This document shows positions 31,101 to 37,100 of a stretch of 64,000 bases of DNA, one piece after another. The position numbers are program-made. Source of the stretch: Escherichia coli (GTDB lineage: Bacteria; Pseudomonadota; Gammaproteobacteria; Enterobacterales; Enterobacteriaceae). Where the stretch lies: assembly GCF_011045215.1 (NCBI RefSeq), contig NZ_CP049201.1; one strand, given 5' to 3'. Within the stretch, counting starts at the first letter, position 1. Every line of letters starts with the position of its first letter.

Positions 31101-34100
31101 ACAGGACAGCATTAATGAAATGGGCGCGAAAGCGGTGCTGAAAAGCGGCGGCAACCCATTACAGAATGTGCTGGGAAGTCTGGGCGGTCTGCAATCCTCA
31201 ATCCAAACCGAGTGGAAAAAGCAGGAAAAAGATTTCCAGCAGTTTGGCAAAGATGTTTGTAGCCGCGTTGTGACTCTGGAAGATAGCCGCAAAGCCCTGG
31301 TCGGGAATTTAAAATAATCCTCTATTTTAAGACGGCATAATACTTTTTTATGCCGTTTAATTCTTCGTTTTGTTACCTGCCTCTAACTTTGTAGATCTCC
31401 AAAATATATTCACGTTGTAAATTGTTTAACGTCAAATTTCCCATACAGAGCTAAGGGATAATGCGTAGCGTTCACGTAACTGGAGGAATGAAATGGAGTT
31501 TTTCAAAAAGACGGCACTTGCCGCACTGGTTATGGGTTTTAGTGGTGCAGCATTGGCATTACCCAATATCACCATTTTAGCAACCGGCGGGACCATTGCC
31601 GGTGGTGGTGACTCCGCAACCAAATCTAACTACACAGCGGGTAAAGTTGGCGTAGAAAATCTGGTTAATGCGGTGCCGCAACTGAAGGACATTGCGAACG
31701 TTAAAGGCGAGCAGGTAGTGAATATCGGCTCCCAGGACATGAACGATAATGTCTGGCTGACACTGGCGAAAAAAATTAACACCGACTGCGATAAAACCGA
31801 CGGCTTCGTCATTACCCACGGTACCGACACGATGGAAGAAACCGCTTACTTCCTCGACCTGACGGTGAAATGCGACAAACCGGTGGTGATGGTCGGCGCA
31901 ATGCGCCCGTCCACGTCCATGAGCGCAGACGGTCCATTCAACCTGTATAACGCGGTAGTGACCGCAGCTGATAAAGCCTCCGCTAATCGTGGCGTGCTGG
32001 TGGTGATGAACGACACCGTACTGGACGGTCGCGATGTCACTAAAACCAACACCACCGACGTAGCGACCTTCAAGTCTGTTAACTACGGTCCTCTGGGTTA
32101 CATTCACAACGGTAAGATTGACTACCAACGTACCCCGGCACGTAAGCACACCAGCGACACACCGTTCGATGTCTCTAAGCTGAATGAACTGCCGAAAGTC
32201 GGCATTGTTTATAACTACGCTAACGCATCCGATCTTCCGGCTAAAGCACTGGTAGATGCGGGCTATGATGGCATCGTGAGCGCTGGTGTGGGTAACGGCA
32301 ACCTGTATAAATCCGTGTTTGACACGCTGGCGACCGCCGCGAAAAACGGTACTGCAGTCGTGCGTTCTTCCCGCGTACCGACGGGCGCTACCACTCAGGA
32401 TGCCGAAGTGGATGATGCGAAATACGGCTTCGTCGCCTCTGGCACGCTGAACCCGCAAAAAGCGCGCGTTCTGCTGCAACTGGCTCTGACGCAAACCAAA
32501 GATCCGCAGCAGATCCAGCAGATCTTCAATCAGTACTAATCACCTCGCCCCGGTATCGTGCCGGGGCTTATTCACTTCAGACTCACGTCCATTGCCAATT
32601 GTGATTATGCTAATGATAATCACTGGAGTAAATTATTCCGCGTGAGGGTGTTCCGGTGAAAAAGCAATGGATTGTAGGCACTGCGCTGTTTGTGTTGATG
32701 TCTGGTAATGTCTGGGCAGGTGGCGAACCGCCAACTGAAAATATCTTAAAAGATCAATTCAAAAAGCAGTATCACGGCATTCTCAAGCTTGATGCCATCA
32801 CCTTAAAAAACCTTGATGCGAAAGGTAATCAGGCCACCTGGTCAGCAGAAGGCGATGTTTCTTCCAGCGATGATCTCTATACCTGGGTCGGTCAGTTGGC
32901 AGATTACGAACTGCTGGAACAGACCTGGACGAAAGATAAACCGGTAAAATTCTCGGCGATGTTAACCAGTAAAGGAACGCCCGCGTCTGGCTGGACGGTG
33001 AACTTTTACTCTTTTCAGGCGGCAGCCAGCGATCGTGGTCGGGTGGTCGACGATATCAAAACGAATAATAAATACCTGATCGTGAATAGCGAAGATTTCA
33101 ATTATCGTTTTAGTCAGCTTGAGTCAGCGTTGAATACCCAGAAGAACTCGATTCCTGCGCTGGAGAAGGAAGTGAAAGAGCTTGATAAGAAAATGGCAGC
33201 GGCGCAGAAAGCAGCGGATGCATATTGGGGAAAAGATGCAAACGGCAAGCAAATGACCCGCGAAGACGCCTTTAAAAAAATTCACCAACAGCGTGATGAG
33301 TTTAATAAACAGAACGATAGCGAGGCGTTCGCGGTTAAATATGACAAAGAGGTTTATCAACCGGCGATTGCGGCATGTCATAAACAGAGTGAAGAGTGTT
33401 ATGAAGTGCCGATTCAGCAGAAACGAGATTTCGATATCAACGAACAACGGCGACAGACTTTTCTGCAATCACAAAAACTTAGCCGTAAATTGCAGGATGA
33501 CTGGGTAACGCTCGAAAAAGGGCAATATCCGTTAACGATGAAAGTTTCAGAAATAAACAGTAAAAAAGTCGCGATTTTGATGAAAATTGACGATATCAAC
33601 CAGGCTAATGAACGCTGGAAAAAAGATACCGAACAACTGCGGCGCAATGGGGTGATTAAGTAACTCATGTTAAGTGCCTTTGCCGGATAATATAAAAAGT
33701 TATCCGGCAAATTATTTTTCACATTAGCCCTAGTAGCTGTGGAATGAACAAGGATATTTGCGGAATGTAAGTGATCATCATCAACGCTACTAGCAATGCA
33801 GCATAAAATGGCAGCAATGGTTTGATTAAATGTTGAATCTTCACACCCGAGATAGAACAACCAACAAATAACGCACTACCCACCGGCGGTGTTAACAGCC
33901 CAATACAAAGGTTGGCCACCATCATAATACCGAAATGTACAGGGTCCATTCCCAGCTCTTGTGCAATCGGCAAGAAGATCGGTGTAAAGATTAGTACAGC
34001 CGGTGTCATGTCCATAAAGATGCCGACAATTAATAAGACGATATTAATCAGCAGCAATATGATCAGTGGGTTATCAGAAATCCTCATCAATGCGTCGCTG

Positions 34101-37100
34101 ATCATATAAGGAATATCAGCATTGGTCATTGCCCAGGACATGCCCACGGAAAAACCGATCAACAGTAATACAATCGAAGTGGTAACAACCGATTCCAGAA
34201 TCAGTTTGGGTAAATCGCGCCATTTCACTTCCCGGTAAATCAGCACCGAGAGAATAAATGTGTAGACAACGGCAATTGCTGACGCTTCAGTTGCGGTAAA
34301 AATGCCGCCCAGAATGCCGCCCATCACAATGAACACCAGAAGCAAACTTGGTAGGGCATCCAGAAACGCTTTACAGGCCTGAGCAAAGGTTGCTCTATCT
34401 GAAAGTGGGTAACCACGGCGTTTAGCAATAATGGCGCAGACAACCATTACCGCGAGCCCCATTAAGATCCCTGGCAAATATCCGGCCATAAATAGCGATG
34501 CTACGGAAACGCCGCCAGCGGTCAGGGAAAACACAATTAACACGTTTGAGGGCGGTATCAGTAATCCAGTAATACAGGATGAGACGTTTACAGCGGTAGA
34601 AAATGCCGGATCATAACCTTCTTTGGTCTGAATGGGATTAAGTGTGCCACCAACGGCAGCAGCTGCCGCAACGGCTGAACCAGAAATGGAACCAAACATC
34701 ATATTCGCCAGGACGTTCACATGACCAAGCGAACCAGGAACGCGGCCAACCATTACCTGGGCGAGGTTAATCAAACGTATCGCAATACCGCCGCTGTTCA
34801 TCAGCGTTCCGGCAAAGATGAAAAAGGGGATTGCCAACAGGGCAAAGTTATCCAGTCCATTAGCCAGTCGTTGCGAAACAGTGATTGCCGCGATATCCCA
34901 GGGAAACATCAAAAGCAATGAAGCTACAGTGGCAATACCGATTGAGAACGAAATGGGCACACCAATAAAGACCAGCACAAAAAAACAGCCAAACAGTGTA
35001 ATCGCGATATAACTATCCATTAACTGGCCTCCTGCTCAGGTTGTTTCAGTTGTTGAATGCTTTGGTTAATAAAACACAAGGCATAAAACATCATCACCAC
35101 TCCACTTAATGGCAGAATGATATATACGTATCCCATCGGTATTTGCATAGCGGCAGATACCTGAGATGTTGCCAGTGTTTTATCAATTAACTTCAGGCCA
35201 CCAGTCACAATGACCGAACCGGCAAAACCTAAAATGAGAACGTTAATGACTATACTAAGAAGTAATTGCTTGCGTTTATTCAAGGCGAGAGCAAATAAAT
35301 CAATAGAGAGATGTCGCTGCGCGCCGACGGTATATGCAGCACCTAATAATCCTACCCAGATCATCAAAAAGCGTGCCAGCTCATCGGTTAATGTACTTGG
35401 CTGGTTAAGTACGTAGCGGCTAAATACTTGCCAGACTACGCATACAACCAGAGCAAGCATGACGGCGACAGAAAACGCGGCAATGACGCGGTCTACCGCA
35501 AGTTTCAGGCGGTTAAATATCATTGTAAGCATCTTGGAAAATCAGGGCCAGAGACTGGCCCGGAATATTATTGAGCAGCGTTGTCGAATTTCTCTAACAA
35601 AGCAGCTTGTTTTGGATCTTTTTTGAAGTCGTCAAACAGAGGTTGCACGGCTTTACGGAATGGCGCTTTATCCACTTTTACAATTTCCCCCCCCATAGCT
35701 TTCGCCTGAGCACGTGTGTCAGCGTCAATTTTTTCCCACAATTTTTGTTGATAAGCTTCGGATTTCTTCGCCGCTGTTTCAAGGATTTGTTGCTGTTCCG
35801 GGGTTAATTTATTCCATGTTTTGGTGGAGATAACCAAAAAGTCAGGAATTGAGGCGTGTTCATCTTCAGAAAAGACTTTGGCAATTTCAATATGTCGAGT
35901 CTGCACCCAGGAAGGCACGTTATTTTCTGCGCCATTTACTACACCTTGCTGCATCGCAGTATAAACTTCGCCAAATGAAATTGGAGTGGGTGAACCACCC
36001 ATCAGTTCAATCATTTTGATGGTGGTCGGACTTGGCTGAACACGAATTTTCAGTCCTTTAAGATCTTCTGGCTTTGTAATCGGTTTTTTCGCATAGAAAC
36101 TGCGTGTACCCGCTACATAAGCTGATAAAGCAAAAAAGCCTTTGTCTTTTGTTGAGTCCATAATTTCTTTACCAACTTCACCAAAAACAACTTTGTTGAA
36201 GTGCGCCTGATCTTTAAATAAGAACGGCAAATTATAGATAGCATAAATATTATCAAAAGACTCCAGATCACTGGCGGAACCTTTGGTCATATCCAGTGCG
36301 CCATTTTGCAACAATTCCATAGTTTCTCGCGCATTACCCATCTGGCTGCTGGGATAAATACGGATCACCATATTACCTTTTGACAGCTGTTTTACCTCTT
36401 TCGCCAGCTCTTCAAAACTCTGATGTACAACATGACTTCTTTCCAGGTTGTGTGCTAACTTTAACGTCACTTTTTCTGCGGCGTTTACGCCAGTGCTAAC
36501 CAGAGCCAGCAAGGATGCGCAGACTAATGAGCGGGTAAATGACCTCATCTTCATAAAAAAACTCCCTGTTGAAGGATGGAAATTGGTTGATATCTAATTG
36601 TGCTTATCAGTGCTTTGTGCGACAAATTGGTTAACCTGTCTGACAACTTGTCTATGTTTATCACAACTTGAAATAAAGTCAGGAATTAAATATTAATTTT
36701 GTGCGCCAGGTTGTACATATTTATAATCAATGAATGATTAGTAAATATTCACTAAATATATATAATAAATGTCGTCGATATTTATTCAGTAAGAAATATA
36801 TTTCTGCCGAGGTTAATTAACGGGGGGGATAAAAGAAGTGATTAATGCGCCCGCAGGCGCATTAATGATTACTCAGCGAGGAATAATTCAAGAAGTGAGT
36901 TTAAGAATAATTTACCATGTTCCGTTATCTGCCAGTAATCCGCACATTCGGTGAGATAACCCTGAGCGATAGCTTCGTCTAACTGTGGGCGAATCACTGC
37001 TTCAGAAAGGCCAGTATACTGACTAAACTCCACGCGCGGCGCAGGTTCCAGCAACCGGAAGCGATTCATAAAGAACTCAAACGGCTTATCTGCGGCTTCT

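Follow-up and report, generated by a model that had tools for sequence, protein, structure and literature searches.

The window (the whole 64-kb stretch of Escherichia coli DNA that was analyzed) contains an intact three-gene dctP-dctQ-dctM TRAP transporter operon on the minus strand (positions 33719 to 36554), between yggM and hemW. We hold with great confidence that the operon is ancestral at this locus and that the K-12 state is a deletion. The explanation that best accounts for the observations as a whole, and one that we regard as likely, is a long-resident TRAP operon beside hemW, probably serving hexuronate uptake, that was lost from K-12 and from approximately 73% of E. coli.

The three open reading frames are co-oriented, and all of their products match the family models over the full length and above the curated cutoffs, which agrees with the complete DctP/DctQ/DctM system described in the first-pass annotation. 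DctP scored 281 bits against PF03480 (1.3e-83) and 283 bits against TIGR00787 (cutoff, 175), and its N terminus reads as a signal peptide ending in ...GVNA, before AEK. DctQ matched model positions 1 to 129 of 132 in PF04290 (106 bits, 1.7e-30), and DctM matched positions 1 to 413 of 413 in PF06808 (408 bits, 5e-122) as well as TIGR00786 (474 bits; cutoff, 268). PGAP places the dctQ start three codons later, giving 167 aa. The dctQ stop codon and the dctM start codon share a single base (ATGA), a sign of possible translational coupling. The hairpin in the dctP-dctQ gap probably acts as an attenuator or mRNA stabilizer that would favor the binding protein over the membrane subunits. The operon and its 314-bp upstream region fill the intergenic space exactly from the yggM stop codon to the hemW stop codon (33664 to 36868). 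This upstream region (36555 to 36868) is AT rich, as had been noted at first pass, with a GC content of 33 to 37% versus 50 to 57% in the flanks. The hairpin between the convergent yggM and dctM genes is likely a bidirectional terminator; the hairpin directly past the hemW stop codon is the hemW terminator and shields the operon from read-through.

Table 1. Features of the hemW-yggM locus (window positions)
Feature	Position	Strand	Description
yggM (DUF1202)	32656-33663	+	Flank of operon
Hairpin, TTTGCCGGATAA...TTATCCGGCAAA	33679..33711	.	Perfect 12-bp arms; between convergent yggM and dctM; inverted repeat I10
dctM	33719..35020	-	Large membrane (translocating) subunit, 433 aa
dctQ	35020..35532	-	Small membrane subunit, 170 aa from first ATG
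GC-rich hairpin, GGGCCAGTCTCTGGCCC	35545..35561	-	dctP-dctQ gap; terminator-like match, 7 pairs, 6 GC
dctP	35568..36554	-	Periplasmic solute-binding protein, 328 aa; identical to WP_164475469.1
AT-rich promoter/regulatory region	36555..36840	-	Shine-Dalgarno GGAG, AGATATnnACCA, box 2, box 1, TGTGA, GCGCACAAAA
Conserved block, GATATCAACCAATTT	36582..36596	-	Approximately 35 bp upstream of ATG
Box 2, AATTTGTCGCACAAAGC	36612..36628	-	Second candidate operator; 21 bp (two helical turns) downstream of box 1
Box 1, AAGTTGTCAGACAGGTT	36633..36649	-	Candidate ExuR/UxuR (GntR/FadR-type) operator; kept across genera
Two further conserved upstream blocks	36661..36706	-	TGTGA, 36665-36661; GCGCACAAAA, 36706-36697
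Hairpin and T-run	36841..36866	-	Directly past hemW stop codon; inverted repeat I4
hemW	36869-38005	-	Flank of operon; TIGR00539, 472 bits

Substrate prediction from the binding protein, proposed at first pass, points to hexuronates. The top nine PDB matches of DctP (4N15/4N17, 4OVR, 4X8R, 4MHF/4MIJ, 4N91, 4N8Y, and 4XFE; E values of 1e-58 to 1e-67) all belong to the glucuronate/galacturonate-binding TRAP cluster, with approximately 40% identity across approximately 290 residues, whereas SiaP and C4-dicarboxylate DctP structures gave weaker matches (1e-33 to 1e-40). The ligands of the cluster entries besides 4N91, 4MHF, and 4N15 are presumably glucuronate or galacturonate. The 4N91 structure is glucuronate bound, 4MHF binds glucuronate/galacturonate, and 4N15 was the template structure chosen for STM3169, which binds glucuronate (PMC7660916). 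Alignment mapping predicts N36, L37, A75, R151, R171, N211, and D238 as the ligand contacts of DctP, including R151, R171, and N211, which align with the conserved carboxylate-binding Arg-Arg-Asn triad. Two of the seven contact residues of glucuronate-specific proteins are changed (Q36 to L37 and E74 to A75, the latter at a position where solved hexuronate binders retain Glu), so the ligand could be another sugar acid.

Homologs from Aeromonas rivuli and Pantoea sp. IMH, themselves uncharacterized (DctP, 60% identical; DctM, 75% identical), are flanked by uxaC, uxaB, and a uxaA-like gene at one end and by the gene for ExuR at the other, with kdgK nearby. These neighbors score above the NCBIfam cutoffs (uxaC, 693 bits; uxaB, 755; ExuR, 442 to 501; kdgK, 445), except for the uxaA-like gene, which falls below the galactarate-dehydratase cutoff, and the adjacent ExuR shares 66% identity with its E. 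coli counterpart. Both clusters have the contact signature N-L-(P/A)-R-R-N-D and similar GntR-type promoter boxes in common with the E. coli operon. Unlike these dctPQM-exuR clusters, which lie amid galacturonate catabolism genes, the operon in E. coli stands alone, with no adjacent catabolic gene or regulator, and its substrate assignment thus relies on homology at approximately 40 to 60% identity. On that footing, a substrate of the hexuronate class is probable. A TRAP transporter for something else, such as a C4-dicarboxylate, 2,3-diketo-L-gulonate (as for YiaMNO), sialic acid, or an aldonic or other sugar acid, would suit the database name "C4-dicarboxylate-binding periplasmic protein," the two sugar-contact residues that differ from every hexuronate-bound relative aligned, and the lack of catabolic neighbors in E. 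coli; we consider it unlikely. The YiaN equivalog model gave a score of 295 against a cutoff of 800 and the YiaM model 39 against 260, the SiaP and C4-dicarboxylate structures trail the hexuronate cluster, the 60% identical homologs in a uxaCBA-exuR context share the N-L-small-R-R-N-D signature, and the candidate operators resemble the exuT operator.

Several known systems bear comparison. STM3169-STM3171 of Salmonella Typhimurium is a D-glucuronate TRAP transporter with a measured glucuronate Kd of approximately 0.2 uM for STM3169 (Herman et al. 2020, PMC7660916). The operon described here resembles it in its DctP/Q/M three-gene layout, its lack of adjacent catabolic genes, its best structural template or match (4N15), the retention of five of seven contact positions (the Arg-Arg-Asn triad plus Asn and Asp), and its predicted role as a high-affinity hexuronate scavenger alongside ExuT. 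In contrast, the binding protein is only 46% identical to STM3169 and has Leu and Ala in place of Q36 and E74, and its ligand is a predicted one. The E. coli ortholog of STM3169-STM3171 is located in a ygiQ-ftsP island (GR21 of BEN2908, PMC12928451) rather than at hemW-yggM, and ST131 has both systems, making the two paralogs and not orthologs. For GaaPQM, an Agrobacterium tumefaciens TRAP system for which PMC5812351 cites Zhao and Binns 2016, the assigned substrate is D-galacturonate, which is also the likeliest one here; its regulators are different. YiaMNO of K-12 (2,3-diketo-L-gulonate) shares the transporter superfamily and subunit composition but differs in gene order, locus, and operon context (yiaK-S), and its equivalog models are far from matched. 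The glucuronate/galacturonate cluster of TRAP solute-binding proteins reportedly described by Vetting et al. in 2015 is said to include Bamb_6123 (4N15/4N17), Bpro_3107 (4MHF/4MIJ), and Apre_1383 (4N91). Its members are the best matches to DctP among all solved structures and share the carboxylate-binding arginine and the second Arg and Asn with it, but the aligned structures have Glu opposite Ala75, and the cluster proteins come from distant taxa.

In the mechanism that we propose, secreted DctP would bind a carboxylated sugar once in the periplasm; R171 would pair with the carboxylate, and further ligand contacts would come from R151 and N211. The loaded protein would then dock on the DctQM membrane complex for import driven by an ion gradient. 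The substrate would most likely be a hexuronate. Because two sugar-contact residues differ from those of STM3169, D-galacturonate is the best guess, although as a specific assignment it is tentative; the ligand may instead be D-glucuronate or a similar uronate. If the substrate is a hexuronate, the operon would serve high-affinity scavenging in parallel with the MFS transporter ExuT and supply the uxa/uxu-KDG pathway.

The regulatory region includes blocks that are invariant or nearly so across an 18-genus alignment, inside otherwise saturated DNA, and that are kept across the Enterobacterales. We take AANTTGTNNNACAANTT as a putative ExuR/UxuR operator consensus, for which Suvorova et al. 2011 is the reference paper; this pattern has eight matches with at most two mismatches in the window versus 4.6 expected. 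Box 1 is the sole match with at most one mismatch in the 64 kb and agrees with the K-12 exuT-uxaC intergenic site AAGTTGTATGACAAGTT at 14 of 17 positions. Box 2, which reads ATGTCATACAG in other genera, shares the 9-mer TGTCATACA with the same K-12 site. When PWMs were built from non-E. coli dctP promoters only, the best match in 35 kb of K-12 DNA was the exuT-uxaC intergenic site, and the exuR-upstream site was among the top six for the box 1 PWM; an equally strong match at window position 15541 is probably due to chance. These motifs tip the balance slightly toward ExuR/UxuR control, in which the regulators would most likely act as repressors at two in-phase operators of the AT-rich promoter, with CRP dependence possible. 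The TGTGA block is a possible CRP half-site, and GCGCACAAAA is a direct-repeat relative of box 2 (repeat D9) with a putative function. The GATATCAACCAATTT block may be a third operator or correspond to the -10/+1 region; a similar sequence, GATGTTATACCAATT, lies between uxaC and dctP in Aeromonas and Pantoea. No sigma-70 promoter upstream of dctP on the minus strand passed a simple scan.

Citrobacter, Klebsiella, Kluyvera, Pseudocitrobacter, Pluralibacter, Phytobacter, and Salmonella enterica lineages all have the operon next to hemW, on its downstream side and in the same orientation. The order yggS-yggT-yggU-rdgB-hemW-dctP-dctQ-dctM-(yggM/ansB)-yggN-yggL-trmB was recovered by tblastn in 4 Citrobacter species, 7 Klebsiella, and 6 Kluyvera, as well as in Pseudocitrobacter, Pluralibacter, and Phytobacter, and in Salmonella enterica contigs the order is identical to that in Escherichia, yggM and ansB included. 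The backbone in Klebsiella pneumoniae and Kluyvera is hemW-dctPQM-yggN, indicating that ansB and yggM, and not the TRAP operon, are the lineage-specific additions here. Nucleotide identity between the window and those genera is 70 to 81% for dctPQM and 76 to 83% for hemW, rdgB, and ansB; third codon positions are saturated (42 to 55% identity), whereas the DctM protein is still 93 to 95% identical. The GC3 of the operon follows the host (40 to 49% in Escherichia, 51 to 74% in Kluyvera and Klebsiella), although in Escherichia it is below that of most flanking genes, which counts against ancestry. The operon was not found in representatives of E. albertii, E. fergusonii, E. marmotae, and S. enterica LT2, so its history requires several losses. 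Shared synteny, flank-like divergence, host-tracking GC3, and conserved promoter architecture nevertheless argue for ancestral presence and loss in K-12. Most parsimoniously, the operon predates the split of Escherichia, Salmonella, Citrobacter, and Klebsiella, and it has disappeared from K-12 and from approximately 73% of sequenced E. coli, a reading that reverses the polarity of the insertion and acquisition envisaged at first pass.

Among 5,426 complete E. coli genomes, 1,460 (27%), including ST131 (strain MS14385) and O111:H11, have at least 80% of the operon at the hemW-yggM locus, and 1,507 of 1,508 matching places are chromosomal. In the K-12 derivative J53, yggM and hemW are separated by 154 bp without TRAP genes, so the two are neighbors in K-12, as the first-pass annotation had stated, and the operon is absent from K-12 and from most E. 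coli. Homology to K-12 ends at the yggM stop codon and restarts at the hemW stop codon. Empty sites contain nothing but REP/BIME repeats: a dispersed REP unit is present once, twice, or three times, for lengths of 64, 154, or 242 bp. In Shigella flexneri and E. coli LT-68, the annotation includes truncated DctP fragments. Operon alleles differ by 2 to 3% among E. coli lineages, mainly at third codon positions, similarly to adjacent core genes. The DctP allele of the window is rare, its sequence being present on two contigs, and OkiPb01695 is the only genome with a match of at least 99% among the matches listed. A divergent Escherichia sp. (MOD1-EC7003) also has the operon. The polymorphism is ordinary accessory-gene variation involving an uncharacterized member of a known family.

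The region from the 3' end of ansB through rdgB is a mosaic with 91 to 97% pairwise identity, versus 99 to 100% for trmB, yggL, and yggS, and the 3' halves of hemW are not sorted by TRAP status (the allele of TRAP-positive O111 is 99.5% identical to that of the TRAP-lacking strain A30). Because the flanks form such a diversity hotspot, the presence and absence alleles have probably been shuffled between lineages by homologous recombination; in this weaker sense, "recombination-mediated" may hold. The mosaic, the unsorted hemW halves, the rare allele of the window, and the operon in MOD1-EC7003 would also suit early loss in E. coli and re-gain of a hemW-dctPQM-yggM segment by homologous recombination from a related Escherichia lineage. 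That route is improbable, since the ST131, O111, window strain, and Escherichia sp. alleles are 2 to 4% apart with no single donor-like allele and since presence in ST131 and the outgroups is most simply continuous inheritance; it would alter only the within-species route and not the ancestral status of the locus. A horizontally acquired islet inserted between yggM and hemW, with K-12 as the original empty site, would fit the low carrier frequency, the segment GC of 38 to 51% (below that of the flanks), the unusually diverse flanking genes, and the several Escherichia representatives and S. enterica LT2 without a match, but it is very improbable given the same position and orientation beside hemW in at least seven other genera and Salmonella, the flank-like divergence, host-tracking GC3, and conserved regulatory region, the absence at the operon locus of any integrase or IS element (as noted at first pass), tRNA gene, flanking direct repeats, or terminal inverted repeats, and the nature of the "empty" sites as secondary REP arrays of variable copy number with no clean ancestral junction. 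The REP unit of these sites is also present elsewhere in the window.

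The first-pass annotation described a complete three-gene TRAP operon between yggM and hemW, and this description held: dctP, dctQ, and dctM each gave a full-profile match to its own TRAP family, above the curated thresholds, and the interval assigned to the operon, 33664-36868, runs exactly from the stop codon of yggM to the stop codon of hemW. The three genes, which specify a family-7 extracytoplasmic solute-binding protein (dctP) and separate membrane subunits, one small (dctQ) and one large (dctM), are co-oriented in one operon, in which the start of dctM is overlapped by the stop of dctQ, and they are routinely annotated as encoding a TRAP transporter in RefSeq. 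The operon also has, as described, its own AT-rich upstream region, with a GC content of 33-37% over the 314 bp upstream of dctP versus 50-57% in the flanks. TRAP transporters (TC 2.A.56) carry out ATP-independent uptake that is driven by ion gradients and depends on a substrate-binding protein (SBP). Because every testable defining feature of such a system was found, dctPQM can be classed by its sequence features as a bona fide TRAP transporter of the DctP/DctQ/DctM type (TC 2.A.56). R171 of DctP aligned with R170 of the E. coli orthologue of STM3169, from the D-glucuronate TRAP transporter of Salmonella Typhimurium (STM3169-71), and with Arg in five of the five PDB alignments shown; R170 of STM3169 pairs with the substrate carboxylate (PMC7660916). 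A literature search (yggM with TRAP; WP accessions) found no publication on the hemW-yggM TRAP locus.

Features of the hemW-linked TRAP operon, its flanking genes, and its noncoding elements (window coordinates)
Feature	Position	Strand	Description
yggM	32656-33663	+	DUF1202
Perfect hairpin between convergent yggM and dctM	33679-33711		12-bp arms
dctM	33719-35020	-	433 aa; PF06808, 408 bits; TIGR00786, 474 bits (cutoff, 268)
dctQ	35020-35532	-	170 aa; PF04290, 106 bits
GC-rich hairpin between dctP and dctQ	35545-35561
dctP	35568-36554	-	328 aa; PF03480, 281 bits; TIGR00787, 283 bits (cutoff, 175)
Box 2, candidate operator AATTTGTCGCACAAAGC	36628-36612	-	2 mismatches to AANTTGTNNNACAANTT
Box 1, candidate operator AAGTTGTCAGACAGGTT	36649-36633	-	1 mismatch to AANTTGTNNNACAANTT
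Hairpin and T-run after hemW	36841-36866
hemW	36869-38005	-	TIGR00539, 472 bits

The operon had been read as an insertion relative to K-12, and the comparison with related genera reverses this polarity. One genome per species was scanned, which yielded 44 loci; the thirteen window genes were mapped onto these by tblastn. The order yggS-yggT-yggU-rdgB-hemW-dctP-dctQ-dctM followed by yggN-yggL-trmB was found in Citrobacter, Klebsiella, Kluyvera, Pseudocitrobacter, Pluralibacter, and Phytobacter, and the operon occupies the syntenic site in at least eight genera. Carriers of the hemW-linked operon include Citrobacter amalonaticus, C. braakii, C. sedlakii, and Citrobacter sp. On2M; Klebsiella pneumoniae, K. 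oxytoca, K. michiganensis, K. grimontii, K. indica, and K. spallanzanii; six Kluyvera species; and two further Enterobacteriaceae. Salmonella enterica contigs encoding a 90%-identical DctP have the exact Escherichia order, yggM and ansB included.

The operon has diverged in step with its neighbors. Between the window and the other genera, nucleotide identity is 70-81% for dctP, dctQ, and dctM and 76-83% for hemW, rdgB, and ansB; at third codon positions, identity has reached saturation (42-55%), whereas the DctM proteins are 93-95% identical. The GC content at third codon positions (GC3) of the operon tracks the host, at 40-49% in Escherichia, 52-68% in Salmonella, and 51-74% in Kluyvera and Klebsiella, and invariant blocks are kept in the noncoding promoter region across 18 taxa. 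Neither the open reading frames nor the PGAP annotation nor a repeat search showed an integrase, an IS element, or a tRNA gene at the operon, in agreement with the first-pass annotation for the first two, and the repeat search found no direct or inverted repeats bracketing the yggM-hemW segment. The operon is not a horizontally acquired island, since mobility signatures and a discordant phylogeny were both sought and neither was found; synteny, divergence that matches the flanks, and a GC3 that follows the host likewise led to rejection of an insertion or island model. The sequence evidence fits long residence under purifying selection, not recent import, and the operon is very probably the ancestral state, with K-12 a deletion mutant. 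The main value of the analysis is this correction, that what appears as an insertion relative to K-12 is the ancestral arrangement; K-12 is a poor reference for polarity.

The newcomers on the Enterobacteriaceae backbone are instead ansB and yggM, judging from gene order. In K. pneumoniae and Kluyvera, dctM adjoins yggN (hemW-dctPQM-yggN; compared loci L040, L014, and L017), Citrobacter adds ansB (hemW-dctPQM plus ansB; L008-L010 and L020), and both ansB and yggM are present beside dctM in Escherichia and Salmonella (the window and L050). Some Klebsiella and Kluyvera genomes carry a DUF1202 gene beside dctM that is only 33-38% identical. In Escherichia sp. MOD1-EC7003 (L006, 12956-14092), yggN and yggL are separated by about 1.1 kb, versus about 180 bp in the window, which would represent an insertion.

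Within the species, the operon is a minority allele. Among complete E. coli genomes, 5425 of 5426 matched the flanks, and 1458 covered at least 80% of the yggM-to-hemW query. With the operon alone as the query, 1492 genomes matched, 1460 of the 5426 with at least 80% coverage at 95-99% identity, and 1507 of the 1508 matching places were chromosomal. Carriers include the ST131 strain MS14385 and O111:H11. Most E. coli thus do not carry the genes, nor does the K-12 derivative J53, in which homology to the window stops at the yggM stop codon and restarts at the hemW stop codon; yggM and hemW are 154 bp apart in J53, which bears out the first-pass statement that the two genes are adjacent in K-12. 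Empty sites measure 64 bp in ECCWS199, 154 bp in J53, and 242 bp in O157:H7 and consist of between one and three REP units; members of the family seen at the K-12 and O157:H7 sites recur in the window at 41227-41258, 53369-53400, and 53491-53522. A short repeat, ATCCGGCAA, lies near both junction types and was considered as the mediator of a deletion, a case too weak to claim.

Among carriers, the window has a rare allele: its DctP (WP_164475469.1) is on 2 contigs, versus at least 1000 for the common allele (WP_000784004.1), and among the matches listed its operon is 99.3% identical at the nucleotide level only to that of OkiPb01695. In at least two strains, an IS element has inactivated the operon: IS3 in S1bESBLb (genome match H36) and, in a separate event, IS1 in B19695 (H67). 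The annotations of Shigella flexneri and E. coli LT-68 include truncated DctP fragments, a sign of decay in some lineages. In E. coli HS-02 (L055, 3672-4861), about 1.2 kb of T-rich low-complexity DNA with scraps of dctM and dctQ replaces the operon between flanks that are 100% identical to those of ST131, and PGAP annotates a TRAP pseudogene at the site; decay in situ is rejected here, as the T-rich DNA is probably an assembly or polishing artifact. In E. coli A30 (L054, 2473-3945), two IS1A copies adjoin the hemW terminator, yggM and the genes beyond it are absent, and yghO and glcC follow, an arrangement that would represent a large IS1-associated deletion or rearrangement. Bins assigned to Collinsella sp. 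(L005), a Bacillota bacterium (L007), and an Alicyclobacillaceae bacterium (L046) contain an operon whose proteins are 98-99% identical to those of E. coli, most likely through E. coli contamination of the bins or assemblies.

The segment around the operon is unusually diverse in E. coli. From the 3' end of ansB to rdgB (31900-38500), pairwise identity among E. coli strains is 91-97%, with the sharpest drop at 36869-37468, and it is low regardless of TRAP status, alike between two strains with the operon and between two strains without it. The 3' half of hemW is not sorted by TRAP status. A clean split of hemW haplotypes between carriers and noncarriers, suggested by many synonymous differences over the last 17 codons of the gene, was sought and not found, as the alleles are mosaic, and both codon variants occur among operon-carrying Citrobacter. 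The locus from the 3' end of ansB to rdgB can be described from these alignments as a mosaic diversity or recombination hotspot around the indel. The first-pass annotation had suggested a recombination-mediated acquisition; both alleles have probably been shuffled among lineages by homologous recombination, as the mosaic flanks suggest, and only in this sense does the suggestion hold. That particular E. coli lineages re-gained the operon is an improbable alternative to plain retention of the ancestral state. Assignment of the window to a cryptic Escherichia clade, considered for its 96-97% identity to most E. coli, is rejected on the outer flanks: trmB, yggL, and yggS are 99-100% identical to those of ST131 and O111. 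The window strain is an ordinary E. coli whose divergence is limited to the segment from the 3' end of ansB to rdgB.

The substrate prediction from the binding protein points to the hexuronate class. Among all PDB sequences, the nine best matches of DctP (4N15/4N17, 4LN5, 4OVR, 4X8R, 4MHF/4MIJ, 4N91, 4N8Y, and 4XFE) have E values of 1e-58 to 1e-67 at about 40% identity and all fall within the glucuronate/galacturonate cluster of TRAP SBPs; the next-best families, SiaP and the C4-dicarboxylate DctPs, trail by some 20 orders of magnitude (about 1e-33 to 1e-40). Among the nine, the ligand is D-glucuronate for 4N91 (Apre_1383) and either D-glucuronate or D-galacturonate for 4MHF (Bpro_3107), and 4N15 was the template chosen for STM3169, whose Kd for D-glucuronate is about 0.2 uM (PMC7660916). 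DctP thus most probably belongs to the hexuronate-binding TRAP subgroup. Assignment to YiaMNO (2,3-diketo-L-gulonate) is rejected by the NCBIfam equivalogs, with scores of 39 against a cutoff of 260 for YiaM and 295 against a cutoff of 800 for YiaN.

The contacts of STM3169 with its ligand are N35, Q36, E74, R150, R170, N210, and D237 (PMC7660916). The window DctP has N36, L37, A75, R151, R171, N211, and D238 at these positions, a signature that is invariant in all hemW-linked orthologues; R151, R171, and N211, which correspond to R150, R170, and N210, are invariant in 15 of 15 aligned orthologues. Compared with N35, Q36, E74, and D237 of STM3169, the set N36, L37, A75, and D238 leaves the glucuronate-specific contacts incomplete. 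The window DctP was rejected as the STM3169 orthologue: the true E. coli orthologue, in the ygiQ-ftsP island of ST131, has seven of seven contact residues at the published positions, lies at a different locus, and is only 46% identical to the window protein. On this comparison, the window DctP is a paralogue of STM3169 that keeps the carboxylate/ring-contact triad and is changed at two hydroxyl-contact positions.

Aeromonas rivuli and Pantoea sp. IMH have the nearest relatives with an informative context, at 60% DctP identity and with the signature N-L-P-R-R-N-D. Their TRAP operon is flanked by uxaC, uxaB, and a uxaA-like gene on one side and by the gene for ExuR on the other, with kdgK nearby; uxaC, uxaB, ExuR, and kdgK pass their NCBIfam cutoffs, and the ExuR protein is 66% identical to that of E. 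coli. At the E. coli locus, no hexuronate catabolism genes were found beside the operon. In the catabolic pathway, uxaB and uxaA form the galacturonate-specific branch. Because these relatives sit with galacturonate-branch genes, D-galacturonate is the best single guess for the substrate, a tentative one at somewhat less than even chances; a hexuronate of some kind is the safer prediction and a reasonably likely one. It is possible, if rather unlikely, that the operon beside hemW forms a second TRAP system for hexuronates whose specificity is unlike that of the glucuronate-specific STM3169 type (e.g., for D-galacturonate or another plant or mucus uronate) and that niche-dependent (balancing) selection has kept it as an old presence/absence polymorphism; the unusual depth of the haplotypes in the neighboring half of hemW would then be explained too. 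In Pantoea sp. IMH (L045, 2093-14800), the uxaABC/dctPQM/exuR cluster lies in the same neighborhood on the other side (exuR-yggR-yggS-yggT-rdgB-hemW), an arrangement that could be due to chance or could reflect a long-standing link between hexuronate genes and the region.

As predicted here, an additional high-affinity hexuronate route is probably present in about a quarter of E. coli strains, ST131 and O111:H11 strains among them. Hexuronates are abundant in the gut, where they derive from pectin and glucuronides, and the paralogous Salmonella TRAP system has been linked to macrophage survival. The hemW-linked operon is an uncharacterized TRAP member in an ordinary presence/absence polymorphism and does not challenge current understanding. 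The ygiQ-ftsP island of ST131 strain MS14385 (L057, 18717-26190) holds a further TRAP operon of the hexuronate type, which includes the STM3169 orthologue, next to a uxuB-like gene (a pseudogene in MS14385), a yjjN-like dehydrogenase, an Ldh-family oxidoreductase, and a FadR/GntR regulator. As this operon occurs alongside the hemW-linked one, some E. coli have three TRAP systems.

The dctP promoter contains two candidate operators, box 1 and box 2, spaced 21 bp apart and both with the TGT-N3-ACA core that is typical of GntR/FadR-family operators. Box 1 is the sole match in 64 kb, at up to one mismatch, to AANTTGTNNNACAANTT, a putative ExuR/UxuR operator consensus; the loose AANTTGTNNNACAANTT pattern is only mildly enriched (8 matches observed versus 4.6 expected). 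Box 1 is identical at 14 of 17 bases to AAGTTGTATGACAAGTT, the K-12 exuT-uxaC intergenic site, and box 2 reads ATGTCATACAG in other genera, sharing the 9-mer TGTCATACA with that same site. Position weight matrices (PWMs) for the boxes, built solely from non-E. coli dctP promoters, were tested on 35 kb of K-12 DNA; the top match was the exuT-uxaC site, and the site upstream of exuR was among the top six box 1 matches. In the window, a match of equal score lies at position 15541. The two boxes are candidate ExuR/UxuR sites from which such regulation is inferred. The window match, GAGATGTCTTACAAAAA (15541-15557, minus strand; score, 20.4), falls within accessory DNA next to a GGDEF-domain gene (15679-17061, minus strand), and both it and a further match, TAAACGTCTGACAACTA (54144-54160, minus strand; score, 16.0), are probably due to chance. 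A simple scan of the minus strand upstream of dctP passed no sigma-70 promoter. Three more conserved promoter blocks, TGTGA, GCGCACAAAA, and GATATCAACCAATT, may be CRP sites or extra operators. Box 2 and the GCGCACAAAA block form imperfect direct repeats 84 bp apart (TTTGTGCGACAAATTG at 36614-36629 and TTTGTGCGCCAGGTTG at 36698-36713), and the second copy could be a distal operator for DNA looping.
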